64,000 bases of DNA from a virus (taxonomy: Duplodnaviria > Caudoviricetes), in IMG/VR virus record IMGVR_UViG_3300035070_003276, positions 1-64,000 of that record; one strand, given 5' to 3'. The notes below the pieces were generated by a model. The model had not been told where the DNA came from and did no database searches. It saw only the letters and a list, made by a program, of their open reading frames with translations. Below, one piece after another: positions 2,639-62,600 of this stretch. Numbering within the stretch: position 1 is the first letter of the stretch; every line of letters begins with the position of its first letter. The position numbers were made by a program, and so were the translations under genes.

Positions 2639-2643
2639 AAAAG

Positions 2644-2670
2644 AACCTCAACAATTAGTTGGGGTTTTTA
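2644..2670 (+). terminator. Intrinsic terminator
   Basis: AACCTCAAC / GTTGGGGTT stem, AATTA loop, then a T-tract. Confidence 0.7.
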
Positions 2671-2694: not shown

Positions 2695-2724
2695 AAAAAA
2701 GGGGAAACCTTTCGGAATCCCCCT
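2695..2724 (-). terminator. Intrinsic terminator for the TonB-dependent receptor gene
   Basis: On the minus strand: GGGGATTCC-GAAA-GGTTTCCCC then T6, just downstream of the stop at 2748. Confidence 0.75.
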
Positions 2725-2747
2725 TAATATAACTAATTAATATTCAT

Positions 2748-5468
2748 TTAGAAATTGTACGTCAATGAAGCGTTCCAAGTTCTACCGAACCCAAACCATA
2801 CTGAGTTTCTCGTATCAACACCATTCCAAGTAGTTGAATTCTCATCTGCATGAATGTTAGAGTTTGATTCTGCGATATACGTAGTATTCAATAAGTTATT
2901 GATGTTTGCTCTCACATTCCATCCTTTACCTAATCTTGCCGTCATACCTAAATCAAACAATCCATATGAAGGAAGTTTCAATGCTCCAGCATTATCAGGA
3001 TTAGTAAACTCTGAATCAGTAATTGAATAATCAGCGTATAATCCATCAACAAATCTATAATCTAAATCCATAGAGATTTTCTTAGTGATTTTTTGGTTAA
3101 CACCTAAAAAGGTAGTGAACTGCGCTGCATCACCAACCTTAGCATCCTTTAGATAAAGAGTACCTGTACCAATCGATTGTTGTTGGTCATCAAATAACTC
3201 TGCCGTAAAATCTTTAGTATATCTCCAATCACCGATTGATAACATACCTCTAAATGTAGTAGCATCTGATAATTGATACTTACCTTCAAATTCGATACCA
3301 TTGTGTACAACATCAATGTTTCTAAATTGAGCCGAACCATCTACACCTTGTTGGTTAGATAAAGAACGAGTTACAAATCGATTACCCCACGATGTAGAAT
3401 AAGCGTTTACGTTGAAAGATAAATCTTTTCCAATGAATCCATAACCAACTTCGAAAGAAGTAATTTCTTCATTTTGTAAATCATCACTAATAGTATTAGA
3501 GTAGTTAGGGAATACTGCGCCAAACTGAGGTTGGCGAGAAATATAACCTGTATTAAAGAATACGTTTGATTTTTCGTTAATGTTGTAATTAGCCCCACCT
3601 TTAAGATACCCACCACCTTGATTTTGAATTAGTGATATCGGTTCATCAGGTACATCGAAGTAATCGATTCTTTGAAATGCTTGATTTGAAAGACCCGCTT
3701 GTACTACGGCAGTTAATCTATCACCACCATATTCAACCAATCCATTCACACCTTGCCATCCTACTTTACCTACATTGTGATAATCAATCTTAGGTCCATC
3801 TAAACCAGTACTACCAAACGGATTAGCTGCAACAGTTGTGTTAATGATTTGACCATTAGAGTTACGATTACCAGTTGAGTAGTAACCATCTAATCCCATT
3901 AGGTTATTTAATACACGATAATGTTGACCTGTGTATTTTCTTAAATCAACACCGATAGATGTTTTCCAATTTCCAAATTGTCCTTCTAAGTTAGAAATAC
4001 CACCAACCCAATCATGCGAGTTCATAGATGCTCTTCTTACTAATACTGAACGATTTACGTTTGAATCTCTGAATCCATTAGAACCAATTAACTGTCCCTC
4101 AAATCCGCTGATATCACCAGTGTATCCTTCAGTAGTTGCTATGTTGTTTGCAACAACTGCATCAAAGTTAATTGAACCATCTGCGTTTCTTGAACCTCTA
4201 CCATTTTCTAAATAGTGTTCAGTTAAATCTTTTCTAAATGGTAAGATATCAGCTTCGGCTGAACGATAGTTGTTACCACGTGGACCCGTACCACCACCTC
4301 TACCAGCTGAACCATATAATGATGTAGCTAGTTTAAGGTTAGATGTAATATCCCAATCCCAGTTAAAAGTTGCTAATGGTTTGTTGTAGAAGTTTCTTCT
4401 CATTGAGAATTCTTCACCATTCAACGTACCACCATTTGAGTTCCATCTAGGGTCAATACCTTCATCACCAAAGTTTTGATAATCTCTAATAGATACCCAA
4501 ACATCTCTTTGGTGGTGCCATTGCCCTGCTCCTAAAAACGTAAAGTTTAATTCGTGGTCAGAACCTTCAGGTGCGTAACCAACTGCCGCAAAGTAGGTAT
4601 AACCTTCTCCACTTGTGTTGTTAACATAACCATTACCAGCCCATCTAGATAGTAAGAAAGATGATGCCCATCCTTTTTCATTTACTCCAGTGTTGTAAGA
4701 TACTCCAGTCTTTGTATAACCATCATTTCCTACCATTTGTAATACCTTACCACCTTCACTCTTTTGAGCGGCTTTGGTAAAAATAGAAACAGTTCCACCT
4801 ACCGATGGTACTGCTAATCGTGATGCACCCAATCCTCTTTGAATTTGGATACCACTAGCAACATCTGATAATCCTTGCCAATTACTCCAATACACACGAC
4901 CATTCTCCATATCATTAACGGGTTGTCCGTTGATAAGAAAAGAAGTGTTAGTTTGGTCAAAACCTCTTAAAGAGATACGTGAATCACCATAACCACCACC
5001 TTGTTTGGTAGCGTAAACACCTGGGGTTTTATTCATAATTTCTGGGAACTCTAAGTTACCCGTCTTTAAAGAAATCTCTGATGGAGATATAGTAGATAAT
5101 GCGATTGGCGTTTCTCTCACCTTAGCAATATCGATTACACCGGATGTAACAACCACTTCACTTAGTGTGTTGTTTCCTACAACCAATGTATAGGTAGCCC
5201 CACTTTTCAATGTTGCTACTAGCTCTTCATATCCCAAAAATGAGATAATAATTTCACTACCTTCTTCAGATTGTATAGTAAAGTTACCATCAAAATCGGA
5301 AACTGCTCCGATAGTGGTACCTTTAACAACAATAGTTGCACCCGGTAATGGTTCATTCGTTCCAGCTTCCACTACTTTACCAGTAGTTTGACCGAATGTA
5401 GATAATGTGGTTAGTACCATCATCATCCCAATTAAAATTTGCTTCATAATTAAATTTGCTTTGTTCAT
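2748..5468 (-). CDS. TonB-dependent outer-membrane receptor (SusC-like architecture)
   Basis: 906 aa. Signal peptide; CarboxypepD_reg-like domain (GKVVEAGTNEPLPGATIVVKGT...SFLGY); plug (TPGVYATKQGGGYGDSRISLRGFDQTN...LINGQPVND); barrel ending in RTWNASLTYNF with terminal Phe. Confidence 0.93.
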   Translation of the reverse strand: MNKANLIMKQILIGMMMVLTTLSTFGQTTGKVVEAGTNEPLPGATIVVKGTTIGAVSDFDGNFTIQSEEGSEIIISFLGYEELVATLKSGATYTLVVGNNTLSEVVVTSGVIDIAKVRETPIALSTISPSEISLKTGNLEFPEIMNKTPGVYATKQGGGYGDSRISLRGFDQTNTSFLINGQPVNDMENGRVYWSNWQGLSDVASGIQIQRGLGASRLAVPSVGGTVSIFTKAAQKSEGGKVLQMVGNDGYTKTGVSYNTGVNEKGWASSFLLSRWAGNGYVNNTSGEGYTYFAAVGYAPEGSDHELNFTFLGAGQWHHQRDVWVSIRDYQNFGDEGIDPRWNSNGGTLNGEEFSMRRNFYNKPLATFNWDWDITSNLKLATSLYGSAGRGGGTGPRGNNYRSAEADILPFRKDLTEHYLENGRGSRNADGSINFDAVVANNIATTEGYTGDISGFEGQLIGSNGFRDSNVNRSVLVRRASMNSHDWVGGISNLEGQFGNWKTSIGVDLRKYTGQHYRVLNNLMGLDGYYSTGNRNSNGQIINTTVAANPFGSTGLDGPKIDYHNVGKVGWQGVNGLVEYGGDRLTAVVQAGLSNQAFQRIDYFDVPDEPISLIQNQGGGYLKGGANYNINEKSNVFFNTGYISRQPQFGAVFPNYSNTISDDLQNEEITSFEVGYGFIGKDLSFNVNAYSTSWGNRFVTRSLSNQQGVDGSAQFRNIDVVHNGIEFEGKYQLSDATTFRGMLSIGDWRYTKDFTAELFDDQQQSIGTGTLYLKDAKVGDAAQFTTFLGVNQKITKKISMDLDYRFVDGLYADYSITDSEFTNPDNAGALKLPSYGLFDLGMTARLGKGWNVRANINNLLNTTYIAESNSNIHADENSTTWNGVDTRNSVWFGFGRTWNASLTYNF

Positions 5469-5518
5469 TAAATGTAACTAAATACATCCTTAATTGGAGG
5501 TATCTTTTTATTTGAGTA

Positions 5519-5550
5519 CAAATATACAAAGAAATATCCAAACAACCAAA
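5519..5550 (-). promoter_or_regulatory. Bacteroidota sigma-A type promoter driving the TonB-dependent receptor
   Basis: Minus strand: TTTG (5550-5547), 20 nt, TATATTTG (5526-5519). Confidence 0.8.
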
Positions 5551-5607: not shown

Positions 5608-5639
5608 TTTGGATAACTCAAAAAATTGTTGTATATTTG
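5608..5639 (+). promoter_or_regulatory. Bacteroidota sigma-A type promoter, divergent, driving the helicase
   Basis: TTTG (5608-5611), 20 nt, TATATTTG (5632-5639). Confidence 0.8.
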
Positions 5640-5678
5640 TATAGTTTACACTATATAATAGTGTAAAAATATTATTAT

Positions 5679-7055
5679 ATGGAATTAAGACCCAATCAAA
5701 TTGAACCCGTAAGGTTAGGTATTGAGTATTTCGATGAAAAGAAACCAGTACCATCAATAATTGTTGCACCTACCGCATTTGGTAAGTCAATTGTTATTGC
5801 TGCAATCGCTAAAGGAGTTGGTGAAAAGTTGTTAGTGATACAACCATCAAAGGAATTGTTGGAACAAAATTACTCTAAGTTTATTAATTTAGGTGGAACT
5901 GCTTCAATATACTCAGCATCTATGGGAGAAAAGGAAATTGGAGATGTTACATATGCAACAATTGGTTCTATTGTTAACATTGCATCTAAGTTTAAGGAAT
6001 TGGGGATTACAAAGGTTATCATTGATGAGTGTGATAGATTCCCCAGAGAACCAAATGGAATGCTTAGGCGTTTCTTAAAGGGTGCTGGTATCAAACATAC
6101 GTTAGGTTTAACTGCTACTCCACTTAAATTACAAACAAATATGGGGTCCGATGGTAGACCATTCTCTAAATTAGTAATGTTAACCTCTCGTTCTAAGAAA
6201 GGAATCTTTTTTAAGAAGATTATTTACGTTGCTCAAATACAAGAAATGGTTGAATTGGGATTTTGGAGTAAATTAGAATATCAATCATACGATTTTAACA
6301 CAGGTGATTTAGTTTATAACACAACGGGAGCCGAATATTCTAACTCTTCCATCAAAAAAGCATACAAAAACCAGAAAATTGGTGATAAGATTGCCAAAAA
6401 GGTAGAAGAGTTGTACAATAGACGTTCAATCTTAATAGCAGTACCAACAATTGATGAAGCTATTGAACTTACAAAGAAGATTCCAAGTTGTAAAGCAGTG
6501 TATTCTGATATGCATCCACAAGAAAGAAGGGAAATTATTGAGGATTTTAAGGCTGGTAGGTTACGATGTATAGCTCAAGTAAACATATTGACTGTTGGAT
6601 TTGATTATCCTGAGTTAGATTGTATTATCACTGGTAGACCTACTGCTTCATTAAGTTGGTGGTATCAATTTGTTGGTAGAGTTACCCGTATTCACCCCAA
6701 TAAATCAGAAGGATTAGTTGTGGACTTTGTAGGGGCAGTTCCAAAGTTTGGTAAAGTTGAAGATATCTACTTCAAAGATGAGGGTACTATGTGGAAAATG
6801 TATGGTGAAGATAAAAAACTTCTTACTGGAATTCCTATTCAAGAAATTGGATTACATATAGAAGGTGAGAAATCCCCACATGAGAAAGCAGCTGAAGGTG
6901 CTAAGGTTATAATGCCATTTGGTAAATATGCTAGAAGAGAAGTTAGAGAAATACCTGCCTCATATAGAGATTGGATGTTGAAGAACTTTAATTGGACTCC
7001 ATTCAATAAAAAAATTAAAGATGAAATTTTAAGATTAAAATCTATTGGTATTTAA
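5679..7055 (+). CDS. Superfamily 2 DExD/H helicase (RadD/UvsW-like) with C-terminal DUF3820-like domain
   Basis: Walker A APTAFGKS, IIDECD, LGLTATP, LTVGFDYP, YQFVGRVTR; C-terminal MPFGKY...REIPASYRDWM. Confidence 0.88.
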   Translation: MELRPNQIEPVRLGIEYFDEKKPVPSIIVAPTAFGKSIVIAAIAKGVGEKLLVIQPSKELLEQNYSKFINLGGTASIYSASMGEKEIGDVTYATIGSIVNIASKFKELGITKVIIDECDRFPREPNGMLRRFLKGAGIKHTLGLTATPLKLQTNMGSDGRPFSKLVMLTSRSKKGIFFKKIIYVAQIQEMVELGFWSKLEYQSYDFNTGDLVYNTTGAEYSNSSIKKAYKNQKIGDKIAKKVEELYNRRSILIAVPTIDEAIELTKKIPSCKAVYSDMHPQERREIIEDFKAGRLRCIAQVNILTVGFDYPELDCIITGRPTASLSWWYQFVGRVTRIHPNKSEGLVVDFVGAVPKFGKVEDIYFKDEGTMWKMYGEDKKLLTGIPIQEIGLHIEGEKSPHEKAAEGAKVIMPFGKYARREVREIPASYRDWMLKNFNWTPFNKKIKDEILRLKSIGI

Positions 7056-12976: not shown

Positions 12977-13633
12977 ATGGTAGTGTATGATTTCAAAAAT
13001 GTTGGTAAATTAAAGAACCTAATAAACTCAGAAGAAGTTCTACCAAAACATGCTGATAAGATTAGTAATATATCAAATGGACTGTTTAAGGGGTTTAAAT
13101 ATGATTCATACAAAGATATACCACCCTACCCAAACGAATCGATAAGAACACTTCAAGAACTTATAAAACTGATGGGTATCAATACTAATGATGACTTCAT
13201 TTATAGTATGGATAGAATTACTGATATGTTTAAGGAACTATGCTCTGAGTTAGATGTTCCAATAGATGAAAATCAAATTGAAAACATATTAAATAATGCA
13301 AGTGGGGTTATCTTAGACTTAAAATATCACTTCAATAGACCAAGACCTAATTTAGTTGCAAAATTATATGGATTGGATTTGGATAAAAATAAATTACATT
13401 TAGATACTGCTGATTCACCATCATATCCATCGGGTCATGCTACACAAGGAACTTTAATTGCAAATTATTTCGCAAATAAATATCCCAAACATGCTATACG
13501 ATTTAAAAAGTTAGGTAGAGATATCGGAAAGAGTAGAATAAACGCTAAAGTACATTACCCATCTGATATTGTAGTTGGGGAACGATTGGGAAACGATATG
13601 TTCCAATATTTAAAAGAAAAAGGATTATTATGA
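12977..13633 (+). CDS. PAP2-superfamily phosphatase (acid phosphatase/haloperoxidase fold)
   Basis: All three PAP2 motifs: K-x4-RPRP (KYHFNRPRP), SYPSGH, SR-x5-H-x3-D (SRINAKVHYPSD). Confidence 0.9.
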   Translation: MVVYDFKNVGKLKNLINSEEVLPKHADKISNISNGLFKGFKYDSYKDIPPYPNESIRTLQELIKLMGINTNDDFIYSMDRITDMFKELCSELDVPIDENQIENILNNASGVILDLKYHFNRPRPNLVAKLYGLDLDKNKLHLDTADSPSYPSGHATQGTLIANYFANKYPKHAIRFKKLGRDIGKSRINAKVHYPSDIVVGERLGNDMFQYLKEKGLL

Positions 13634-14156: not shown

Positions 14157-14188
14157 CTTGGAACTTCCAATTATTATTCGTATATTTG
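14157..14188 (+). promoter_or_regulatory. Bacteroidota sigma-A type promoter
   Basis: CTTG (14157-14160), 20 nt, TATATTTG (14181-14188). Confidence 0.75.
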
Positions 14189-14704: not shown

Positions 14705-14932
14705 ATGAGAACAGCAGTAGATATAGTTTTGGAAGGAGTTTCCAATAGCTCTATTAGTAAAGAAGATGCAAAAATACTTTTAGAAGCAATCAATCAAAAA
14801 GGAGGTACAACTTTTATACCCCTTCCTTATGAACAACCTTCTTATCCTTCGTATCCCTCACCTCCTTGGAAACCAGGCGATATTTGGTACACAACAAATA
14901 CAAACACAACATCAGATAATAATCTAAAATGA
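14705..14932 (+). CDS. Hypothetical protein
   Basis: 75 aa, Pro-rich middle, overlapping junctions. Confidence 0.6.
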   Translation: MRTAVDIVLEGVSNSSISKEDAKILLEAINQKGGTTFIPLPYEQPSYPSYPSPPWKPGDIWYTTNTNTTSDNNLK

Positions 14933-15609
14933 GAATTTGGCACATATCAGATACACACACCTATCACAATTTATTGGAAGTTCCAACGGATATTGATATG
15001 GTAATTTTTAGTGGGGATTGTTCTAATCCAATGGACCCGTATAATAACGAACCTGAGGTTAGGGGATTTATTGATTGGTTCGCTTCATTAAAAATTCAGT
15101 ATAAGATATTTGTTGCTGGAAATCACGATACTTCAATTGAAAAGAAGTTTGTAACCTCAGAAGATTTTGCACGAAGAAACATCATCTACTTAGAGAACGA
15201 AGATATCATTATTGATGGAATCAAAATTTTTGGTTCACCTTACACTCCAACATTTGGATATGGTTGGTCTTTCAATAAAGATAGAACAAAGTTAGAAAGA
15301 ATTTGGAGAAACATTATTGATGAAGATGTGGATATCATTATCAATCACGGACCACCAAAAGGTATTTTAGATTTATCATTGGATAGAAATGGAAATTTGG
15401 AAAGATGTGGTGATAAATCTCTACTTAATAGAGTGATGGAAGTAAATCCAAAGTTGTGTTTATTTGGACACATTCATAATCACAAAGATATCATCAATCA
15501 GGGAACTATGAAGTTAAGTAATTTAGATACAATCTTCTCAAATGGTTCAGTAATGAAAGATGGTGGATTTGGTAAATTGACATCTAATGGAAATGTGATA
15601 GAAATATGA
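14929..15609 (+). CDS. Calcineurin-like metallophosphoesterase
   Basis: HISDTH, SGD, AGNHD, NHGPP, FGHIH motifs. Confidence 0.9.
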   Translation: MRIWHISDTHTYHNLLEVPTDIDMVIFSGDCSNPMDPYNNEPEVRGFIDWFASLKIQYKIFVAGNHDTSIEKKFVTSEDFARRNIIYLENEDIIIDGIKIFGSPYTPTFGYGWSFNKDRTKLERIWRNIIDEDVDIIINHGPPKGILDLSLDRNGNLERCGDKSLLNRVMEVNPKLCLFGHIHNHKDIINQGTMKLSNLDTIFSNGSVMKDGGFGKLTSNGNVIEI

Positions 15610-23118: not shown

Positions 23119-23150
23119 TTTGGTTATATCAAATCTTTTTTGTATATTTG
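23119..23150 (+). promoter_or_regulatory. Bacteroidota sigma-A type promoter
   Basis: TTTG (23119-23122), 20 nt, TATATTTG (23143-23150). Confidence 0.8.
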
Positions 23151-26823: not shown

Positions 26824-28755
26824 ATGAAACGATTTTTATTAGGCCTGATACTAATGTTACCATTTGTGTCTTATGGTCAAAATGGGGCTAATGAAATACT
26901 TACAGCCCCTAACTCAAACTCTCCACATATACTTGTGGATACTCTATTTACGTTAGAGCAAGATATTTCGGTTGGTTATACTGAAATTTATTTACACTAC
27001 GCTAACCCAACCCCATCTGATATATTCTCAGCTGTTCAGTTCAGAATATTCTATGATGATGTTAAGTTTACAACCCCTGAGATTTATTGGGGACCTACTG
27101 CTACTCCGATTACTGATAAGTATGGTTCTTACTTTGCTAATTCAGATTATGTAAACGTTATTGCATCTTATACAGGTAACAATAGTGGATTTGATTGGGC
27201 AGATGGGGCAATGTTTAAATTACGATTATATCACACTACCGCATACGATGGTGTTGTAGATTCAATTGCAATAGCTGGCTCAACAACTTACAATAACTTA
27301 GCAACTACAACTTCCGGATTAGATGTTCCATTAGCAATGCACAACTATGGTGGTAATTTCCAAATGGATATTTTGGAGTTCCCAATTATTGCAAGAAATG
27401 CAGATGGAACTCCTGCACAAGGTATGTGGTTTACTGCTCAAAAAAGATTAAAATCAGATGTTTCTGGTTTATGGACACCAATCTCAATGGATTCAACAAA
27501 CTCAAATGGATTGTTCGTTGTACAAGACCAATTAGATACCGCATTTTGGCATCTGAGAGTTACTGCACAATCTGATACGATGAGTGATGGGTTTGCATTA
27601 TCCGTAACTGATGCATATAAATTAGCAAACCAAGCTTCTCAACAAGATACACTTTCGGGAATCGAATGGTATGCTGGTGATATTAACGAAAGTAACGATG
27701 TAACCATTTCAGATGCATTCGCAATGTTTAATAGATTAGCATTACAATCTACAACGTGGACATCATTATTTAGTGGTGTAAACAACGTAGCAATATTATG
27801 GCCAGATGAATACATATCAGCATTGGCTGCAACTACATCTCCAACTTGGACAAACACTCCGAGAGTTTACGTAATAGACACAATTGTAAACTCAATGGAT
27901 TCACTTAAACCTTACATTTATGTAGTAGGTGATGCAACTACAACGGGTTACAACAACCCTGGTGTATTGGTTGCTAAGATGGCTGACCCCGGTATTGGGA
28001 CGGATTACATATTAGACCCAGCGGTATATCTTTCAAACAAACCTGATACTGTTGAATTTAGAATTCCTAAGTTAACAATGACGGTTGATAATAAAATGAG
28101 TGTACCTGTAACTCTCTACACATTTGGTAACCAATTAGGTGCTATCCAAATGGGTATTGAATTCGATACTACTATCTTTAGATTTGAATCAATTGAAATG
28201 GGTGATGCAACTTCTAAATGGACATCAGTTCTATCGGTGGAGAAAGGAAAAGTATTTTGGGCAGGACATGAGGATAGATTAAACCCAGCATTGGTTGATG
28301 ATATGACAACTCAGTTCACATTTAACTTTGAGGTAATTGACCCATTGGGTTGGAATCAATCACCATTAAAAATAGTTGAAAAAATGGCTGGTGATAGATA
28401 TGCACAAGATGTTAGTGTTAAACCTTCACCAAATGATGGTTCAGTTGTTAATAGAACTTCAATTGACCCTGAGTTAGACCTGATGATGAATGGATTCAAA
28501 GTTTATCCAAATCCAACAACTGAATTTATGGGACATTGGGTTGTATTTGAATATCACACTTACTTAGAGGATGGTGATGTTAATGCAATCGTTTATGATA
28601 TTAATGGTAGAGAGGCAATGAGATGGTCTGATAAGATTTATCAAAGTGGTTTCCAATTCCAAGGTTTCACAATGGAAAATTTACCAAACGGAATGTATTT
28701 GGTAAGGTTGGTTACGCAAGATAGAGATAAAGTTTATAGAATTATTAAAAAGTAA
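26824..28755 (+). CDS. T9SS type A sorting-domain protein with cohesin-like and dockerin-like regions (module B1)
   Basis: Signal peptide; cohesin-like SAVQFRIFYDDVKF; dockerin-like SVTDAYKL...GDINESNDVTISDAFAMF; cohesin-like GAIQMGIEFDTTIFRF; canonical CTD KVYPNP...VYDINGR...NLPNGMYLVRL...KVYRIIKK. Confidence 0.85.
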   Translation: MKRFLLGLILMLPFVSYGQNGANEILTAPNSNSPHILVDTLFTLEQDISVGYTEIYLHYANPTPSDIFSAVQFRIFYDDVKFTTPEIYWGPTATPITDKYGSYFANSDYVNVIASYTGNNSGFDWADGAMFKLRLYHTTAYDGVVDSIAIAGSTTYNNLATTTSGLDVPLAMHNYGGNFQMDILEFPIIARNADGTPAQGMWFTAQKRLKSDVSGLWTPISMDSTNSNGLFVVQDQLDTAFWHLRVTAQSDTMSDGFALSVTDAYKLANQASQQDTLSGIEWYAGDINESNDVTISDAFAMFNRLALQSTTWTSLFSGVNNVAILWPDEYISALAATTSPTWTNTPRVYVIDTIVNSMDSLKPYIYVVGDATTTGYNNPGVLVAKMADPGIGTDYILDPAVYLSNKPDTVEFRIPKLTMTVDNKMSVPVTLYTFGNQLGAIQMGIEFDTTIFRFESIEMGDATSKWTSVLSVEKGKVFWAGHEDRLNPALVDDMTTQFTFNFEVIDPLGWNQSPLKIVEKMAGDRYAQDVSVKPSPNDGSVVNRTSIDPELDLMMNGFKVYPNPTTEFMGHWVVFEYHTYLEDGDVNAIVYDINGREAMRWSDKIYQSGFQFQGFTMENLPNGMYLVRLVTQDRDKVYRIIKK

Positions 28756-28767
28756 CATTAATTTATT

Positions 28768-29145
28768 ATGAAAGAAGAAATCAAAGAAGGGATGTCCACT
28801 CTTAAAAAAGGTGTGATTGGATTGTTGGGAACATTAGTAGCAGGTGTGGGAACATTTGTAACTACTCAATTTAATTCATTATTGGGAATTGAAGAAGAAT
28901 CAGAAACTCCAACTGAGATTGTAGTGCCGGTTGAAAACACACAACAACAAAATGTGAATGTAACTGGACCTGAAATCATCATTAACATTCCACAACAACA
29001 AACACCAGCTCCTACTCGTACAATCATAAGAGAGACTGTTAAGGAAGTTCCTGCAGCGCCGATTGAAGTTGTAGAAGAGAAGCCAGAAACTCCAATGGAA
29101 AGAATGGCTAGACTAAAAAGAGAAAGAGCAGAAAAAAATAAATAA
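28768..29145 (+). CDS. Membrane-anchored QNVNVTGP-motif protein (module B2)
   Basis: TM segment, then QNVNVTGPEIIINIPQQ...RTIIRE; paralog of 9760..10074. Confidence 0.75.
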   Translation: MKEEIKEGMSTLKKGVIGLLGTLVAGVGTFVTTQFNSLLGIEEESETPTEIVVPVENTQQQNVNVTGPEIIINIPQQQTPAPTRTIIRETVKEVPAAPIEVVEEKPETPMERMARLKRERAEKNK

Positions 29146-29147
29146 TT

Positions 29148-29888
29148 ATGAGAACGAGAAAAGATGTAATTTTAGAATGGACAGTAGCACCTTTGATGCT
29201 TATCCTTACCGCTTGTGCCTTAGTATTTGTAGGTACATTCGCAACCTCATGTTCTTCATCAGTTGGTGTGGTTCAATATCAAGCTGATTTTGAGAAGGCA
29301 GAACCCCTAAATACAATTCCACCATTTACAGGTGAGAAGCAAATTGTACAACTTTCGAAATTAAATGTAAATAAAGAACTATGGGAAATGTTTCCTGAGT
29401 TGAGAGATAAGAGAGTTGGTTTAGGTGTATCGAATCGTATTATCGAAAACTTTGAGATGACTCAAAGATTCAAATACGCTGAAGAAAAAGAAGCTATTCA
29501 AAACCAAATGTTAGATGCTTGGGAAGCCGAACTCAATGGAATGGGTGATGGGCAAACTGAGTTAAAGATGGAGGGCATTGCTTTACCTAAGTATATCGTA
29601 TATGCTGAGATTTATGATTTCGCAGTATCGTATGGTGAAAACTATAAACGGGGTAAATCAGAAATAACTAACACTACTATTATGGGTATCCAAATCAGAA
29701 TGGTCAATGTAGATAACTCACAATACATCGTAGCGAGTGGACAGGGAACTGCAACTCAGATAGGTGAGGGATTCTTCAAAAATCCACAAATGGGTTTTGA
29801 TAATTCAACTGTTGGTATCGCTACCCAACGTGCGTTAGAGGTTGCTACGGTAAACCTTGTGAAACGTATGGAAAGTTATGGATGGTAA
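29148..29888 (+). CDS. CsgG/HfaB-like lipoprotein (module B3)
   Basis: Lipobox ATS-C; FPELRDKRVGLGVSNRII...RFKYAEEK, YAEIYDFAVS, GIQIRMVNVDNSQYIVASGQG; paralog of 10337..11056. Confidence 0.78.
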   Translation: MRTRKDVILEWTVAPLMLILTACALVFVGTFATSCSSSVGVVQYQADFEKAEPLNTIPPFTGEKQIVQLSKLNVNKELWEMFPELRDKRVGLGVSNRIIENFEMTQRFKYAEEKEAIQNQMLDAWEAELNGMGDGQTELKMEGIALPKYIVYAEIYDFAVSYGENYKRGKSEITNTTIMGIQIRMVNVDNSQYIVASGQGTATQIGEGFFKNPQMGFDNSTVGIATQRALEVATVNLVKRMESYGW

Positions 29889-31329
29889 GAAATGGTTAAT
29901 AGTATTATTACTTCTTATAGGGTTTAAGTCATTTGGGCAATCGTTCCAATACACTTATATTGACCCCTGTACTGGTGTTCCTAATACTGTAACTATTTCA
30001 CAACCTTCAGGTTCGGTAACTCTTTTTTACGCAGGACAATATCAGAATTTTACATCAACCCAACTTCAAGCCGGTGGTTATGAAGCTTGGGTTGCTTCTA
30101 TTAATGCTGCATCCCCACCGGGTTCTAATCCTTGTGCTGGAAATGCTGGAGCCGTAAGTGGTTCTACTTCTGCATCGGTAGGTACGAACGTATCAAATAC
30201 CGTATCTAACATATCGGGTGCACTTGCCACATTGGGTTCTTCCACATCTGGTGGTTCCTCTGGTGGAATGGGTACATCTACCTCTTCATCTGGTAGTTCA
30301 TCATCAACCTCTTCTTCAAACGATGGTGGTTCATCTTCTGGTAGTAGTGGTACCGATGGTGGTGATACTGGTGGAAGTGGTAGTGGCGATACTGGGGGTT
30401 CTGGTGGTTCTTCTGGTAGTGGAGATGGTGGTAGTGGTGATACTGGTGGAGGTTCTTCTGGTGGAGGTTCTGGTGGTTCTGGTGGTTCATCGGGTGGAGG
30501 TTCTACTGAGGGTGGTGTATCATCCGATGGTGGTAGTACAACTTCAGATGGGGATGGTGGCTCATCTAATGGTGGGGCAATTGGTGATAAAGATATTGAT
30601 GCAGAATCAGGTGGACAATCATCTGATTCCGAATCCGAAGATTCCGGTGGAAGTGGTGGTGGAAAGAAAAAGAAAAAAGGAGCAAGAGCAAGAAGGGGTT
30701 CGTTAATTGCATCGGGTGATATGGTAGTTGTTCGTAATGGTTCAGATTACAAAGAAAGTGGTAACGATAATCTTAAATTCAATATGGGGGTTACTTGGGC
30801 AAATACTAACCAAACAATTACGGCTGGTGGGCTGTTAAATTATACAACGGGGCAAAATGAATTTTCTCTTACGGGATATGGTTCTTTTAAGATTGAAGAA
30901 TCAATGATTGTAGGGTCTAACTCATTCCTATACAATGTATCTCAACAAACTTGGTTCAATACGGGTAATGTAATGTATGCATTCAAACAAAATAAGTATT
31001 TAACCACATTAATGGGAACTAACTTTTCAGTAGGTCAATTAGGTGATGAAACATTTTCAAATTGGGCAGCAAACATTGGTACATTTACTACCTTTAATGG
31101 TTATAAAGGATTTGCGATGAACTTAATGGGTATCGCAATGTACTCACCTTATACTTTCTTCTATGAAGGACAATGGTTCAAAGGAGGATTCCTTTTTGTA
31201 CCTCTAACAAGTTTTGATTTTAATGTTACAAAAACTTTTAAATTTAATATATCTACCTCAACTGTATATTTAATGGGTGAGGGTATATTAAACTTTCAAC
31301 TAATGACTGGTACGAAGATGTTGTTATGA
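29878..31329 (+). CDS. Exported protein: Cys-pair N-domain, Gly/Ser linker, C-terminal beta-barrel (module B4)
   Basis: Signal peptide; FQYTYIDPCTG...NPC; about 140 aa G/S/T/D linker; KKKKK; amphipathic strands ending LMTGTKMLL; paralog of 11060..12382. Confidence 0.7.
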   Translation: MDGKKWLIVLLLLIGFKSFGQSFQYTYIDPCTGVPNTVTISQPSGSVTLFYAGQYQNFTSTQLQAGGYEAWVASINAASPPGSNPCAGNAGAVSGSTSASVGTNVSNTVSNISGALATLGSSTSGGSSGGMGTSTSSSGSSSSTSSSNDGGSSSGSSGTDGGDTGGSGSGDTGGSGGSSGSGDGGSGDTGGGSSGGGSGGSGGSSGGGSTEGGVSSDGGSTTSDGDGGSSNGGAIGDKDIDAESGGQSSDSESEDSGGSGGGKKKKKGARARRGSLIASGDMVVVRNGSDYKESGNDNLKFNMGVTWANTNQTITAGGLLNYTTGQNEFSLTGYGSFKIEESMIVGSNSFLYNVSQQTWFNTGNVMYAFKQNKYLTTLMGTNFSVGQLGDETFSNWAANIGTFTTFNGYKGFAMNLMGIAMYSPYTFFYEGQWFKGGFLFVPLTSFDFNVTKTFKFNISTSTVYLMGEGILNFQLMTGTKMLL

Positions 31330-32525
31330 TACGATGGTTAAAATTCTTTTTGGTATTTCCGTTGGGGTTGTTTTCACAAAATGTAACCTTTGCAACTGTT
31401 GGTATCCAAGATATGAGTGGCATTGATGTAACAATCATTCATACTCAACCTGGTGGTACAATTGGTAGTATATCTCAAATGACAAGTGGTATTCCGACAG
31501 ATAGAGGACAGGGAACTACAACCATATTCGCATCAGCTAATTCGGACCAAGGTTCAGTTATAGTAAACTTTCCAAATGGATATGAACCCGAAATTGGTGG
31601 TACATCTTATTCCACCGGTAAACTTCATGCTAATGCTTGGTTAGCTTTTCCAACTACAAACTATAATAGTTTCGCTAGTTCAGCATCTGCACCAAATGTA
31701 CCTACACTTCACTTTACTTCGGTAAACAATGGTAGTACCGATAACAATATGTCTCACGTTTCTACTGAGACTTATAATGACCCATCATTAGGTGATGTAT
31801 TTAGAATTAGGTATGAGGGAAGTTATAGGTATAATGTGAGTGGTATCAATACAAAGATAGACTTATACTTTGCAAAGAATAACAACAAAGAAATCTTAGT
31901 GGTACTTAGACAATTTTTGGCAGATGGTTCAAATCAAGAACAAATCGGATTATCAAATGGTAGTAGTTGGTTAGCATCTAACATTATCTCATCTACATCA
32001 TATTCAAACGGAAACGCTTGGTCAATCGATAATACTGTATTGGTTGGTGTAAGGGATACTTTAACAACACAAACCACAACATCAACCGGTATGTTAAATT
32101 TTAACAATCCAAATAACTACGATTATGAAGTGATAGTGGATGTGAGTAATATGAACAATATACTTACTGAATCTGAAATGAATTACTTAATGTATCTAAG
32201 AATGTTCCCAAATGAAATTACATCTTGGGATTATCATACGATGAACTTCTACACATTAGATAGTTCAGATATTACAACTTATTCGGATGTATTCTCTGCA
32301 TATCAACTATACAAATTGGGACAGAACTTTGGATACACTTATAATAACAATTGGGTATATTCACAATCGGAAAAAGATGATATAGAATCAAATGCAAATA
32401 GTTTAATTTATCATTTAAAGTATCCAAAAGAATCAATCAGAACATTTAACAATCTCAATAGGTTTTATATCGTTTCTTTGGGTAAACACCGAAGAACAAC
32501 TAATACAAAAACAATAACACAATGA
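31326..32525 (+). CDS. Exported beta-rich protein with degenerate dockerin-like C-region (module B5)
   Basis: Signal peptide ending LFS-Q; C-region ITSWDYHTMNF...DITTYSDVFSAYQL echoes the duplicated dockerin-like helix pattern of B1. Confidence 0.5.
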   Translation: MIRWLKFFLVFPLGLFSQNVTFATVGIQDMSGIDVTIIHTQPGGTIGSISQMTSGIPTDRGQGTTTIFASANSDQGSVIVNFPNGYEPEIGGTSYSTGKLHANAWLAFPTTNYNSFASSASAPNVPTLHFTSVNNGSTDNNMSHVSTETYNDPSLGDVFRIRYEGSYRYNVSGINTKIDLYFAKNNNKEILVVLRQFLADGSNQEQIGLSNGSSWLASNIISSTSYSNGNAWSIDNTVLVGVRDTLTTQTTTSTGMLNFNNPNNYDYEVIVDVSNMNNILTESEMNYLMYLRMFPNEITSWDYHTMNFYTLDSSDITTYSDVFSAYQLYKLGQNFGYTYNNNWVYSQSEKDDIESNANSLIYHLKYPKESIRTFNNLNRFYIVSLGKHRRTTNTKTITQ

Positions 32526-51190: not shown

Positions 51191-51209
51191 AATATTATTT
51201 GTATATTTG
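51178..51209 (+). promoter_or_regulatory. Bacteroidota sigma-A type promoter
   Basis: CTTG (51178-51181), 20 nt, TATATTTG (51202-51209). Confidence 0.7.
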
Positions 51210-56642: not shown

Positions 56643-59600
56643 ATGGCTAGAATTAAAAAGTATTCACCAGAACAAAACTTATCATCATTTCAAACATTAA
56701 TTGTAGATGATAACCCTAATTCGGATTATTTTAGAATAACTGAATTTAAAGATACATTTACTGGTGGTAAAAACGGGTTTCTTATTGAGGGGTCTGAATA
56801 CCTAAAAGAAACTACTGAAATAAAAATAGAGATTTTAGATGTAGAGGGGAATCCTATATTCTATGAGCCAGCAAAGGGTATCCCAGAATACTATGAAGGT
56901 ATATCATCCCTAATAGCAGTTTATATTTATAATGATACACCAATTGGATTGGGTAAGATTACTATTTTAGGTGAACTCAAAGAGTACATTGATAATGATG
57001 TAAAACGAACTATTCCAGATGTATGGAAAGGTACATACAATGTTAAATGGGAACGTACATTTCAAATTAATAAAATACTTGCTAATGAGGATAGAGTTAG
57101 ATTCTTTAAAAGACCTCAAATCAATATTGATGAAATTAACAAACCTATATTCAATAATAATGCAAATTTAGTAACTCAGATTGGTAATGTTAATGGTATC
57201 CCATTAGCACCAACCGCTGGTACTTCATTAACTGAATTTTCGTTACCAACATCATATAGATTGAATGTTAGTAATGGTTCTAATTGGACGGGTTCAATTG
57301 AGGGTAATAGTATTTCTTTTGATAGTATTGATTATAATCCAATTGTATTAGATGTTGTAAGTGAAACTGAAATAATTGTTTCACCACCATATGCACCTAA
57401 TGGAATTGTGGCACCTTTTTCAAATGAAAGTTATACTACATCATTTAATTATTTAGAAGGCGTATCTGATTTAGCAACCGCACTTACTGGTTCATTCGCT
57501 AAGATTAGTATTACTGATATGAAAACAGTAGTTGGTGATGCTGCAAGAGTAAAAGTATATAGACGTTCTCAATCAAACTTAACCGATTATGAGTTTGTAC
57601 AAGAAATACAATTAGAATCAAATGAGTTATTAAGAGATATAGAAACTACCGAAGCTAATGAAATTAGTTATGGTACGTTTACACAAGATGTGTTATCACA
57701 ATATTGGATGACTTCATCAAATGATATCTCAGTAGAACTAAATACTGGATTCTTATACAACTCAACTAAGTTAAACTCAACCGAAGGAAACTACTTTCTT
57801 ACAAAGCAATCATTTCCAATTCAGAGTGGTGTAGAATATACATTAGATTTTAATGTTAAAAAGGGTAGTGTTTCCCCAACTGATTTCCTAAAAGTAACTT
57901 TAAGTGGTTCTTTAAATGGAACTCCAAAATCACAAACAATTGTAAATATACCATCATCAAATGCTATTTTACAAAAACGAAATTTTACCGAAAATATAAT
58001 TGCTGATGATTTTGATGAAGCAAGGTTATATTTTGAAGTCGATGGGGTTGATTGGTACGTTAATAATGTAAGTTTGAAAGCATCACAGGAAACATCGTTT
58101 TCTCCTGATGAAATTACATTTATACAACAAGTACCAAAAACATTACAAACTGAAACATTTGATTATAGATTTGAATTCTATGATATCAACAACAATTATA
58201 TACCTGTATTAGTTGAAGATACAAAAACATTTGATGGTGGAAATTTAAATCTTTTTAATAAAGATATTACAATTACACCAAACAATTTATATTTCTCATT
58301 TGATTCAGCATCTGCGCCATCAAATCCGTTACCACCAACAACAATTACATTTGATGTGGAAACAACTTTGGTTACTGGTTCAATTACATATACATCTGGT
58401 GCATATGATGAGTTTGGTGATTTGATTTTATCATCCGAATATGTAGGTGGACAGTATCCTGGTTTAATGAGTGGATATGAAACTCTAAGTCCAACATTAA
58501 CTGTTGCTGATTTTACTGGTTCCAGAGATGATATTACTGTACAATATATTAGATTCACTGGTGAGGTGGAGGGTGTATCCGATGATGTAGTAATCACCAG
58601 AACTCAAGATGGTAAGGGTGGTGTAAACTTTGAAATTAGACCTTATAGAGGTACCATTATAAAAAATAAAGATGAGAGTACATTGGAGGTACAAGCAATT
58701 CGTATCGATGGTGTTAACGAAATCATACTAAAAGATAACTTACCACAAAATGGATTCTCTGATGCAAAGTTGAGAGTACAAAGTGGGTCTGAGTACATAT
58801 TATTATCTGAGGCACAATCAAGTGGATTCATACAAGGGTTAACCGCTGGTATAACTGGTAGTGGTGAATTGAATTATAACGCTGTATTTGATAGAACATC
58901 TATTACGGGTCAGTTACCATTATACCTAATGGATGGTACTACTGAGCAAGATATCCTAACAACTTTATTGTTAACTGATTTACAAGATGGATTGGGTGCT
59001 GGATTTGTTACATTTGATGTAGAACAATTTAACATCAATCCAAAAGAAGATACAACATTTACACCACAAACTGCAAGTTTAGCTGGTAACTTTTATTTAA
59101 GAGGTACAAACGAATCACCAATTAGTGGTACTTTACAAGTATTCCCATCGATGTCTATTGATGAATCACTTTTACCTGAATATTATATGTTCTTTGAAAC
59201 TGGTGCATTTGATAATAGAATAACTGTAACAGCAACAAACGCACAAAACGAAATTATTGGTAGTGGTATCCCTGGTGATTCGGTAGATTACTACACACCT
59301 ATTGATAGTAAGCAATTAACATTTAACTTTACATATGTAGAAGATTTCACATCAGAATCAATTAGTGTTGATAAAACAATATTTGTAGCACCGGATGGAT
59401 TGGGTATTGAGCCGGTTGTTGTAAGTGTTGACCCACTTACCTTAAACTTAAACTCAAACCAACAAGGTGAGGTTTATAGTTACACTCCATTAGATACAAC
59501 AATTACTGCTAAGCAGGGTAAGTTGGATTTAATTTATACTGGTAGTGAAAAGCCGGGTACATTCTATACTGAATCAATCAGTACAACGAATATAGAATAT

Positions 59601-62600
59601 ACTACTGAAAGTTTTACAAATACTACTTTATCACTTACTGGTTTTCAAAATATGACATCATCTTTGGTGGCTAATGTTGATTATAACTTAAAGGTATATC
59701 CATATTATACATCATCATTTCAAACCCAAACTATTACACAACGAATTACAAAGGGTGTGGATGGTTCAGATGCAGTTGAAATATTAGTAGAACCATCTGT
59801 GGTAACACTACAAGCTAATGAAAATGGAACAGTATCCGATTACTCAACTGCTAATACTGATATTGTTGTTAAGCAAGGTAATTTATACCTATCATATGAA
59901 ACAAGTAGTTTACCGGGTACATATAATGTATCTGCAACTGGTAGTGGTATTGTGGTGGGTGATATATCAGCATCCTCTCAATATGATTTAGATTTCGGAG
60001 ATGAGACAGTACACTTTACAAACTTTAGTGAATTGGAAGGTGGTAGTGGTTCGGTTGATTACAACTTTGTTGTATTCCCATACTCATTAACAAATGGTGT
60101 GGCTGGTGTAGTTGAAACTTATAATAAAAAGCAGGTATTCTCAAAATCAAATGATGGTACAGCTGCAAGAAGTGTAAGTTTATCAACCACAACAGAAGTT
60201 GTAAACTTTGATGGAGATGGTGTGGTTACCTCACCATTAGGTTCGATATTCTTAGAAGCAACTGCATTCAACGTAACTGCATCACAAACGTATTACCAAT
60301 TCTTTAGAGATGGATTTGCATATAGTTTAGTTGGAACTGAACCTACATTTGAAATTGGTTCTGGTGATGCAACTTCACCTGGTGAAACTGCAACTTGGAG
60401 AGTTCAAATTAGAGATGGTCAATCTAATTCACCAGTAGTAGCATCCTCAGAGGTAACTATTGCGGGTATCAAAGCAGGGGCCGATAACTATCAAGTATTT
60501 TTAACAAACCCATCACCAAGTGTTGGAGTTGAGGTTGATGGTACTACTACACTAGATACAACTGGAACTCAAATAACGGCACTTAAAGGTACAACTCAAT
60601 TAACGCATGTATCAACATATTCCGATGAAACTTTAGATTTAATTGGAGACCCGATTGGTACAATTGGTGAATTTTCATCATCATTGTATTATGTACCACC
60701 ATTTATAACACAACCAAATATACCAAACGGAAATCCGGCTAACATAGACCCAATAACAGATTGGAGTACACCGCAAGATAACAAAGCAGCTACAATTGTT
60801 TATAAGGTTGATATAGAAAATGGTAGAGCAACTTATTTCTTATCACAATCACTTTCAACTGTATTTGAAGGAGCAACTGGGCCTGGTATTGTTGTAAGGG
60901 GTGAATGGACTGGTTCGGTTGATTACTTATTTAGTTTAGAACAAAAACGTAGAGATGCAGTAGTTTACAAATACGATAATGGTGGTGAGCAAGAAACTCA
61001 TTACTTTGGTACAACAAATACATTAAACGATTTTAAGAGATTACCATATACATCTTCAGTTGGTATTACTGATGAACCATCTTATGATGGAACGCAAGAA
61101 CAGGGTGATGTAGATACATTTGGTTGGGAATACTTAGGACAACAAGATATGTTTGTTGCTGCTAAGATAGCAATCTTCGAAGAATCATTTGTAGAAAATA
61201 CAATAAATGTTGGTATTCCGCCTGATGGATTTCCTAACGCAAATATTGCAATAGTTGGTGGAACCGATGAACCTTATATAGCAATTGGTCAACAAGGTAC
61301 TCAAGGATTCGCTCAACCTGGTGTGTTTATGGGTATGACTAATGATGGTGGTCCTAATGGTACGTCTGGTACAATGGGTATATTATCGTTAAAATCAACA
61401 CCAAATGGTGGTGAATATAAATCGTTAGAATGGGATGGTGATACACTCACAATTAGAGGTTCAATTAGACAAACTGCGGCTGGTGTAGTAGAACCATCAC
61501 TTAGAGGAACTTGGGCAGATGGAGTAGATTACAATCCAGAAGATTTAGTACAATACATTGGTGAGACTTGGAGTTCAAATACTACACATACATCAAATAT
61601 ATCAGGTGGAGTAACTGATGGACCTCCGGGAACCGGTCCTTGGACTATTGCAGCTGGCGCAGGTAAAAACATAAGTTTATCAGCCGATTCATATGTAATA
61701 CAATATGATGAATTTGGATTAAACCCAATACCATCTTCAACAATCTCCTTAATTGCATCATCATCAAATTTTGTTGATGCATATTATAAGTTTACTGGAG
61801 GTGGTGCGGTATTTACGGATGAAACTTCATTTACTGATGGGTTAACCGCAAATACCGATACGGCAACATTAACTGTTCCATCATCGTATTTCTCAACACC
61901 ATTGACAATTAAAGTTGCAGTTTCTGAGGGTAATCAGGTAGAAAAATTATCCGATACAATTACCATAACTGCATTAAAATCTGGAGCAGATTCTACACCA
62001 CAATATATGATTACTCCATTGACTGGAACTCAAATCAAAAATAGTAGTGGTAATATTGAACTACAAGTTCAAGAATCATCTATAAATGGATTGAGTGATG
62101 TAAATAGTGGTGATATTAAAATATACAAAAACGATTCATCTTTATTAAACGCTTCAATGAGTGGTGTTACTGGTGATGAGTATAACCCAACATTGGATTC
62201 AGATGCAATAACTGGTACACTAAATCTACAATTAAGAGATGTATCCGATAACGTATTAGATTCAATCACATTAGTTGATGTTAGTGATGGTTTAGGTGGT
62301 GGTTCATTTATTTCACCAAACTTAAAAGCAACGAGAAATCCAGGTTACGGAATTTATAATCCAACATTCTTATCAGCAACCGCATCATTCTTCGATACAT
62401 CTGGAACCGAATACCAAAAGCAAGTTCGAATCACACCATCGTTAAGTGGTGTAACCGACTATATGGAAGTTGGTACGGCGAGTGGGGATAGTGAAATTAC
62501 TATCACCGCAAACGATGGTGATGGTGGTAGTATCACATTGGGTGGTTCATCGGTAGCAACTAAAGATGTTGTATTAGTTGCAACATTCACAGACCCAGCT

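Follow-up and report, generated by a model that had tools for sequence, protein, structure and literature searches.

A 64,000-nucleotide stretch of DNA from a virus of the Caudoviricetes (Duplodnaviria; positions 1 to 64,000 of IMG/VR record IMGVR_UViG_3300035070_003276, hereafter the window) carries on its minus strand a gene for a complete TonB-dependent receptor (TBDR). Judged from its sequence context, this is a phage auxiliary gene: it is flanked by phage genes on both sides, is conserved in related phages and is under purifying selection. The protein is probably a functional, phage-resident copy of a core Bacteroidota importer that occupies an inverted transcription unit of its own and sustains nutrient entry. 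There is likewise a reasonable case that the carrier of this functional auxiliary gene is a large, lytic-looking phage of the myovirus type that infects marine Flavobacteriales. TonB-dependent transporters (TBDTs) rank with the most abundant proteins that marine Flavobacteria make, and few of them have a known ligand. If many phage lineages independently keep one such transporter, the protein is probably limiting during infection.

An intact receptor with the parts of a working transporter

The coding sequence (2748..5468; this gene and all of its parts lie on the minus strand) encodes 906 amino acids (aa) without an interrupting stop codon, and three Pfam domains score above their cut-offs, in agreement with an earlier note on this DNA that described an intact receptor. 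An alternative start at Met8 (5447) gives an 899-aa form, which is the one picked by gene callers in relatives. The hallmarks of a TBDT are all recognizable in the sequence: signal peptide, TonB box, plug, barrel and C-terminal aromatic signal. The signal peptide region (residues 1–26; 5391..5468) has the hydrophobic core ILIGMMMVLTTLSTFG followed by Q, and appears as a helix over residues 4–18 in the structural model. It is followed by an N-terminal extension resembling CarboxypepD_reg (residues 29–107; 5148..5384; PF13715, CarbopepD_reg_2, E = 1.3e-16), which matches the N-terminal domains of solved TBDR and SusC structures (6ytc, 9hfj). The sequence SEVVVTSG (residues 103–110; 5139..5162), assigned as the TonB box by its resemblance to the consensus, persists in almost every phage and bacterial copy. 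The plug (residues 117–225; 4794..5120; PF07715, 44.8 bits versus a cut-off of 23.9) is densely invariant across 40 homologs. The remainder of the protein (residues 239–906; 2751..4754), which ends in ...TYNF, is a 22-stranded β-barrel according to Pfam, Foldseek and an AlphaFold model; the Pfam barrel domain (PF00593, TonB_dep_Rec_b-barrel) covers residues 417–859 with 56.4 bits, above its cut-off. The C-terminal Phe is conserved, and ends of the form ...YNF or ...YRF are the commonest among the phage and bacterial copies tallied.

The AlphaFold model was built on 40 homologs and has a mean pLDDT of 74.9, and its 22 strands were counted by merging kinked or short DSSP segments. The earlier note had looked to structure prediction for the plug and the ligand site; the model is confident in the barrel, where pLDDT is mostly 75–93, and poor in the plug. 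Foldseek matched it with a probability of 1.00 to Fiu, FhuA, PiuA, FecA and OprC, with E-values down to 1.6e-30 at 11–14% identity. As far as the model goes, these matches indicate a generic TBDT fold and are silent on the ligand. A sequence search of the PDB with the TBDR returned matches to the N-terminal domain only.

Family models bear on what the receptor might import. The SusC/RagA model TIGR04056 reached 79.6 bits against a cut-off of 368.25, over residues 28–184 only, and by its sequence the receptor is not of the SusC type. The absence of a SusD partner, already remarked on in the earlier note, holds as well: the neighbors are a DEAD-box helicase and small open reading frames (ORFs) without families, and the bacterial orthologs are also without SusD. 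It is unlikely that the protein instead serves to import an iron-siderophore, heme, cobalamin or another vitamin, and so relieves a micronutrient limit in infection, rather than the nucleic-acid products considered below. The names given to relatives in their source records, “cobalamin receptor” or “Fe transport”, would suit such a role but are generic COG labels. Siderophore and metal TBDTs are indeed the best fold matches, yet at 11–14% identity they share only the common barrel. The models for cobalamin and siderophore receptors, TIGR01779 (41.8 versus a cut-off of 599.7) and TIGR01783 (68.9 versus 223.5), fell far short, as did every other substrate-specific TBDR model in NCBIfam. No cobalamin riboswitch or other Rfam riboswitch family was found upstream of seven bacterial loci or in the window. 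A gene resembling HemA does adjoin the TBDR in relatives whose receptors are 82–83% identical, but genes for siderophore, heme or B12 functions are not recurrent beside the TBDR in phages.

Purifying selection on the phage copies

Within the phage clade, TBDR copies have dN/dS values of 0.11–0.19 at dS from 0.26 to ∼1.3, compared with ∼0.03–0.10 for most bacterial TBDR pairs and 0.03–0.07 for the neighboring helicase. A comparison of dN/dS across phage homologs, proposed in the earlier note as a check, thus points to purifying selection in phages that is somewhat relaxed relative to bacteria. To locate the constraint, the protein was split into plug, strands, loops and turns by the topology of the AlphaFold model. 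Variability is lowest in the plug, for phage and bacterial pairs alike, and highest in the N-terminal extension and the periplasmic turns; the ratio of loop to strand variability is 0.9–1.1 in phage pairs versus 1.1–1.4 in bacterial pairs. This pattern suggests that the phage copies keep the constraint of a working transporter.

The same comparison bears on superinfection exclusion, receptor replacement or decoy. If the host ortholog were the receptor of the phage itself or of its competitors, the phage copy could alter the receptor landscape of the cell, its debris and its vesicles. TBDTs are classic phage receptors, the fold matches include FhuA bound to T5 pb5 and FhuA bound to Llp, an exclusion lipoprotein, and repeated capture of exactly one orthogroup would suit a protein relevant to adsorption. 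A recent preprint proposes receptor-level interference by phage-encoded outer-membrane barrels (bioRxiv 10.64898/2026.10.24.761521). Nevertheless, we consider this explanation quite unlikely. The loop diversification expected of a receptor variant or decoy was not found in the phage pairs, where loops are no more diverged than strands, and constraint is strongest in the TonB box and plug, parts that a decoy could do without. Loops are unusually conserved among the bacterial orthologs too, unlike those of a receptor in an arms race, and a cell that still displayed an unchanged receptor while dying would capture progeny phages instead of shielding them. Of the two functions that the earlier note had proposed, nutrient uptake therefore fits better, given the retained TonB box and plug and loops no more variable than the bacterial ones, and the receptor decoy gains no support.

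It is very improbable that the gene is a decaying passenger without function in the phage. Its dN/dS does lie above the bacterial level, but the value remains well below 1 over dS of up to ∼1, the plug and TonB box are conserved, and among 80 sequences fetched from the 139 IMG/VR contigs that encode relatives, all complete copies are stop-free.

Residence in a phage lineage

The junction between helicase and inverted TBDR occurs in at least eight independent assemblies whose TBDR proteins are 81–100% identical. At this same locus, contigs from JGI, ENA, NCBI and IMG/VR that derive from different samples have identities of 100, 96, 90, 87, 83, 82 and 81%, and the identical protein occurs with the same neighbors on two more JGI contigs. 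The 82% copy belongs to an NCBI record labeled “bacterium”, which is a 12-kb contig of the same phage synteny. That the assembly is chimeric, or contaminated with host DNA, at 2.7 and 5.6 kb, a chimera being among the findings that the earlier note said would overturn its reading, has practically no chance of being correct: the TBDR has a GC content of 0.36–0.37 versus 0.30–0.34 in the flanks and is the sole inverted gene, but both junctions recur in independent assemblies of several projects with gene and flanks diverging together, the promoter and terminator are conserved along with them, GC3 of the TBDR (0.24) is inside the range of phage genes, and the closest bacterial copy is at most 75% identical. 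Because the same junctions recur across samples with diverged sequence, we treat a chimera as refuted for practical purposes, and we regard both chimera and decay as excluded.

In the relatives with 82–83% identical receptors, a gene resembling glutamyl-tRNA reductase (HemA-like; GlutR_N and Shikimate_DH) is the immediate neighbor of the TBDR and has the same orientation as the remaining phage genes (L003–L006, 12962–13972; L171, 8925–9935). The window has only an 80-aa ORF at that place.

The plus strand carries all real genes of the window except the TBDR. Other minus-strand ORFs of at least 100 aa sit within plus-strand genes or across the intergenic region, which bears out the earlier description of the TBDR as the only well-supported gene on its strand. 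One relative with the same arrangement is a 252,603-bp IMG/VR record that CheckV rates as 100% complete, and others are contigs of 120–154 kb. Since relatives that share the arrangement reach these sizes, the window is probably part of a very large phage.

Transcription signals of the inverted unit

The promoter and terminator that the earlier note had assigned to the gene are both present. The putative promoter, TTTG-N20-TATATTTG (5550–5519 on the minus strand; 5519..5550), fits the Bacteroidota −33/−7 consensus, and promoters of this pattern occur seven times in the window versus 2.6 expected. It is the same but for one spacer base in relatives with 87–96% identical TBDRs, and its −7 box is degenerate in the relatives at 81–83%. 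The −7 box itself, GTATATTTG, is present in nine copies versus 1.7 expected. The TBDR copy occupies 5519–5527 on the minus strand, and five plus-strand copies (438–446, 5631–5639, 14180–14188, 23142–23150 and 51201–51209) stand just upstream of plus-strand genes, namely those starting at 463, 5679, 14208 and 23169 and, for the last, in the gap before 51495. Four of the copies have TTTGG ∼20 nt upstream. These sites probably constitute the phage's set of host-sigma promoters, either early or middle. A −7 box common to the TBDR and at least five phage-gene sites suggests that the receptor is wired into this set, and by its sequence the box is the phage's own recurring one, not carried over from the host gene. 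A promoter of the host-sigma type makes early or middle expression of the TBDR plausible.

TGTTAA recurs upstream of the bacterial TBDR genes (56 of 73 regions) but seldom upstream of the phage ones (5 of 66). A regulator of the host gene may bind this element, which the phage copies have lost. In the 200 nt examined upstream of bacterial loci (L007–L086), TGTTAA/TTAACA often forms an inverted or direct pair ∼80–100 nt upstream.

Directly after the stop codon, an intrinsic terminator (GGGGGATTCC-GAAA-GGTTTCCCC and a T-run; 2695..2723, minus strand) contains a G+C-rich hairpin at 2723–2702, with a folding energy of −17.1 kcal/mol (z = −3.3 versus shuffles). All six relatives compared retain the hairpin; in the most distant of them (L088) the stem has another sequence. 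The TBDR terminator is convergent with the one (2641..2669, plus strand) of the upstream plus-strand gene at 2396–2638.

At its other end, the TBDR is separated by 210 bp from the divergent DEAD-box helicase gene (5679–7055). This gap houses two back-to-back promoters, the one for the helicase (5608..5639, plus strand) having the same −7 box. The 5′ leader of the TBDR may contain a small hairpin (5481..5504, minus strand), for which a 9-bp stem in four relatives with two compensatory pairs is weak evidence. Just past the −7 box of the helicase promoter, a perfect palindrome with 10-nt arms (TTTACACTAT-ATA-ATAGTGTAAA; 5645–5667) is conserved in the four closest relatives and is replaced by another palindrome in those at 81–83%. 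Its role might be that of an operator or of a hairpin in the leader.

Repeated exchange of a core Bacteroidota gene

Bacterial orthologs were sought with each bacterial and archaeal species represented by one genome. The phylogenetic comparison with Flavobacteria suggested in the earlier note yielded an orthogroup, whose nearest bacterial members (MS024-3C, Polaribacter, Cryomorphaceae and others) are 72–75% identical to the window copy and which extends at 63–70% identity across Flavobacteriales, Cytophagales and Balneolales. Each of the four bacterial genomes checked has exactly one copy, and 36 Flavobacteriaceae loci have the order M23 peptidase, pgi, TBDR and small membrane ORF. On these sequence data, the TBDR belongs to a single-copy core orthogroup of marine Bacteroidota. 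No flanking gene family is common to the fetched phage loci and 80 bacterial loci; 76 phage loci are linked to one another by shared flanks.

In trees made with FastTree (142 sequences) and IQ-TREE (76 sequences), phage and bacterial copies interleave. Twelve label changes are needed, at least 11 of them forced by supported branches, although the exact count of transfers is soft, as a few “bacterial” labels on short contigs of metagenome-assembled genomes (MAGs; L010, L021) may be mis-binned phage. A single phage clade is rejected by the AU test (lnL difference 1155, p-AU 1.9e-18). The phylogeny thus indicates repeated exchange of the orthogroup between phages and bacteria.

The window copy falls in an all-phage clade with a support of 99, which mixes the inverted, helicase-linked relatives and phages of unrelated backbone whose gene is co-directional. 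Across all phage loci, inversion is confined to the lineage of the window, and most phages with the orthogroup carry it co-directionally inside replication and nucleotide modules. The inverted cassette of the earlier note is a transcription unit of its own, but its layout is peculiar to this phage lineage and not general for phage carriers.

The capture is old, because GC3 is phage-like (0.24) and dS to the bacterial copies is saturated. A recent capture, as the raised GC content might suggest, was rejected on the same two grounds. Of the captured host gene posited earlier, what stands is that the gene is host-derived and fixed in the phage; it is not a recent capture, nor does its promoter retain a host −7 box.

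Gene neighborhoods and a candidate substrate

The analysis shows the integrity of the gene, its conserved synteny, its promoter and terminator, the purifying selection on it and its repeated transfer between phage and bacterial genomes, whereas expression timing, outer-membrane insertion, import function and substrate are inferred. The promoter would be read by a host sigma factor and the transcript would end at its own terminator. After infection, the TBDR would be exported by the host Sec system, inserted by the host BAM machinery and energized by the host TonB–ExbBD. No tonB or exbBD was seen among the window ORFs scanned, such that the host system would be required. The phage TBDR might then supplement or replace the host importer, with a conserved small ligand entering while host expression declines. 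Import of nucleic-acid products would feed the heavy nucleotide demand of the phage.

A lead to the substrate comes from neighbors clustered over 71 dereplicated phage loci. In 16 of these, an S1/P1 nuclease with a cleavable signal peptide lies downstream of the TBDR, adjacent or with only a small membrane ORF between. The adjacency is spread over at least five TBDR clades, and the closest co-directional relatives of the window (L089, L090, L092 and L093) are among its carriers. Other recurrent neighbors are an AAA_28 protein that weakly resembles the NadR kinase domain (31/71 loci, mostly downstream), clamp-loader genes (28/71, near the TBDR), a three-helix membrane protein of ∼75 aa (17/71, near), a GMP-reductase/IMPDH-like gene (14/71, directly upstream) and the large subunit of ribonucleotide reductase (9/71, near). 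In two bacterial lineages, an S1/P1 nuclease gene comes after the single ortholog and a nucleoside transporter gene after that; the transporter is of the CNT family in Arcticimaribacter-like loci (L023, L030, L058 and L064) and of the NupG type in a Flavobacterium MAG (L013). That two unrelated nucleoside transporters stand beside the TBDR and a secreted nuclease makes a reasonable case for nucleic-acid breakdown products. Our best guess for the substrate is accordingly such a product (nucleotides, nucleosides or short oligonucleotides) or a related pyridine nucleotide precursor, a guess by association that draws on gene neighborhoods elsewhere and not on the window. A recent preprint mentions transport genes, including those for nicotinamide mononucleotide transport, near phage-encoded barrels (bioRxiv 10.64898/2026.10.24.761521), a remark that is compatible with, and not specific to, nucleic-acid products.

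Shared neighborhoods of a secreted nuclease, nucleoside transporters, and purine and NAD salvage genes thus turn into a concrete guess at the ligand, and a wider scenario can be put forward tentatively. The orthogroup might be the outer-membrane gate of nucleic-acid and nucleotide scavenging in marine Bacteroidota. Phages would have captured it many times, often with the S1/P1 nuclease, the three-helix protein and the NadR-kinase-like protein, as a transferable salvage route by which extracellular nucleic acids supply phage genome replication, and the phage of the window would keep only the gate, under an early-type promoter of its own. If true, this would give a core uncharacterized gene of Bacteroidota a function, extend the host processes commandeered by marine phages to the outer membrane, and bear on the recycling of dissolved DNA, RNA and their phosphorus by infected cells.

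Apart from the soft transfer count, several points weigh against a nutrient importer or against this substrate. Neither the window nor the complete 252-kb relative has the S1/P1 nuclease, the AAA_28 gene or the small membrane partner. Apart from other phages, the nuclease context is found in only 2 of ∼12 bacterial contexts, and most Flavobacteriaceae place the gene after the M23 peptidase and pgi, which is uninformative on substrate. In the AlphaFold model, pLDDT is below 50 over residues 98–226, so that the plug is poorly modeled, and the ligand site is not readable. The phage dN/dS is 1.5–2 times the bacterial value, and some relaxation or a shift of function is possible. Finally, a new outer-membrane protein has to repay its cost before a single lytic cycle is over, and this cannot be taken for granted.

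The ∼75-aa phage membrane protein (L099, 10763–11008; L089, 5277–5501; and 15 others) has three hydrophobic helices and an invariant ...TxQTQxTKxYNL... motif. Its gene separates the TBDR from the S1/P1 nuclease or AAA_28 genes, and its size is that of a small transporter subunit. Its profile matched nothing in Pfam, NCBIfam or the PDB, which leaves a SemiSWEET-like or PnuC-like reading unsupported, and no homology to it was found for the 140–146-aa membrane ORF downstream of the bacterial gene. In both bacterial lineages with the nucleoside transporter (L030, 2178–3647; L013, 4686–6137), a gene of the CotH kinase family lies a few kb upstream of the TBDR, nuclease and transporter group.

Comparison with known systems

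The nearest known counterpart is the chromosomal ortholog, as found in Polaribacter sp. HL-MS24 and Flavobacteria bacterium MS024-3C. It has the same architecture and length at 72–75% identity, including the TonB box, plug, C-terminal signal, lack of SusD and a strong terminator directly after the gene. The phage copy differs in that it lacks the bacterial upstream region, has a phage-type promoter, lies among phage genes and has a dN/dS about double. Importers of the SusC/RagA type are likewise Bacteroidota TBDTs with a CarboxypepD_reg-like N-terminal extension, but they pair with SusD, whereas the TBDR has no SusD neighbor in phage or bacteria and falls below the cut-off of TIGR04056.

A phage-borne component of nutrient uptake, cyanophage PstS, was reportedly described by Zeng and Chisholm in 2012. 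There, too, the phage carries one component of a host uptake system, takes the rest from the host, and presumably thereby aims at nutrient supply in infection. For PstS, a periplasmic binding protein, expression and an effect have been demonstrated, whereas the TBDR is an outer-membrane gate known from sequence.

TBDRs as a kind have already been published in phages. Those of the marine megaphages Mar_Mega_1 and LR745206 have been read as serving carbohydrate uptake (PMC9723777). Lak phage TBDRs (cluster HP2985) are transcribed, and 22-strand barrels appear among the 1,603 barrels of a huge-phage survey that also discusses receptor remodeling (bioRxiv 10.64898/2026.10.24.761521). Like the gene in the window, these are full-length TBDRs in large Bacteroidota phages, interpreted as uptake or receptor remodeling, in reports at the level of annotation. 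The megaphage proteins, however, match only the N-terminal 200–300 residues of the window TBDR at 28–31% identity, and thus belong to another TBDR family. Phage envelope proteins also act at TonB-dependent or porin receptors in the cases of T5 Llp on FhuA (PDB 8a60) and lambda Lom on LamB (cited in the preprint). Each of these is a small lipoprotein or an 8-strand barrel and acts by blocking the host's receptor, whereas the TBDR is a complete transporter with conserved transport machinery.

A literature search, the coverage of which was incomplete, returned nothing specific on this marine phage TBDR family, on its repeated capture or on a link between TBDTs and S1/P1 nucleases. New here are the single-copy core orthogroup, the interleaving of phage and bacterial copies, the lineage-specific inversion, the phage's own −7 box, and the neighborhood of nucleases and nucleoside transporters.

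Other features of the window

The gene content marks the window as phage DNA: a family scan of its ORFs identified gp25, baseplate wedge proteins, PhoH, dCMP deaminase, primase, an SbcCD-like nuclease and a SegE-type homing endonuclease. Families of an auxiliary type are ThyX, NT5C, Hsp20, peptide deformylase, an HD-domain protein, a UDP-glucose/GDP-mannose dehydrogenase and a cupin/lyxose-isomerase-like protein. No integrase was found among the ORFs scanned, and many ORFs of structural size were mostly without matches to PHROGs and Pfam. A near-identity DNA search with the first 12 kb of the window found no match among GenBank phages. Two candidates for a periplasmic nucleotidase, the PAP2 (12977–13633) and Metallophos (14929–15609) proteins, were rejected, as neither has a signal peptide or membrane segment.

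A 643-aa protein (26824–28755) weakly matches the type IX secretion system (T9SS) sorting domain Por_Secre_tail at its C terminus (25.8 bits, cut-off 27) and, also weakly, a cohesin domain. A phage protein routed via the host T9SS would suit a Bacteroidota host. Local GC content rises to 0.39–0.41 at 29000–32000, over two ORFs without a family match (29878–31329 and 31326–32525). At the far end of the window, an ORF of more than 2,452 aa (56643–63998) runs off the end of the sequence.

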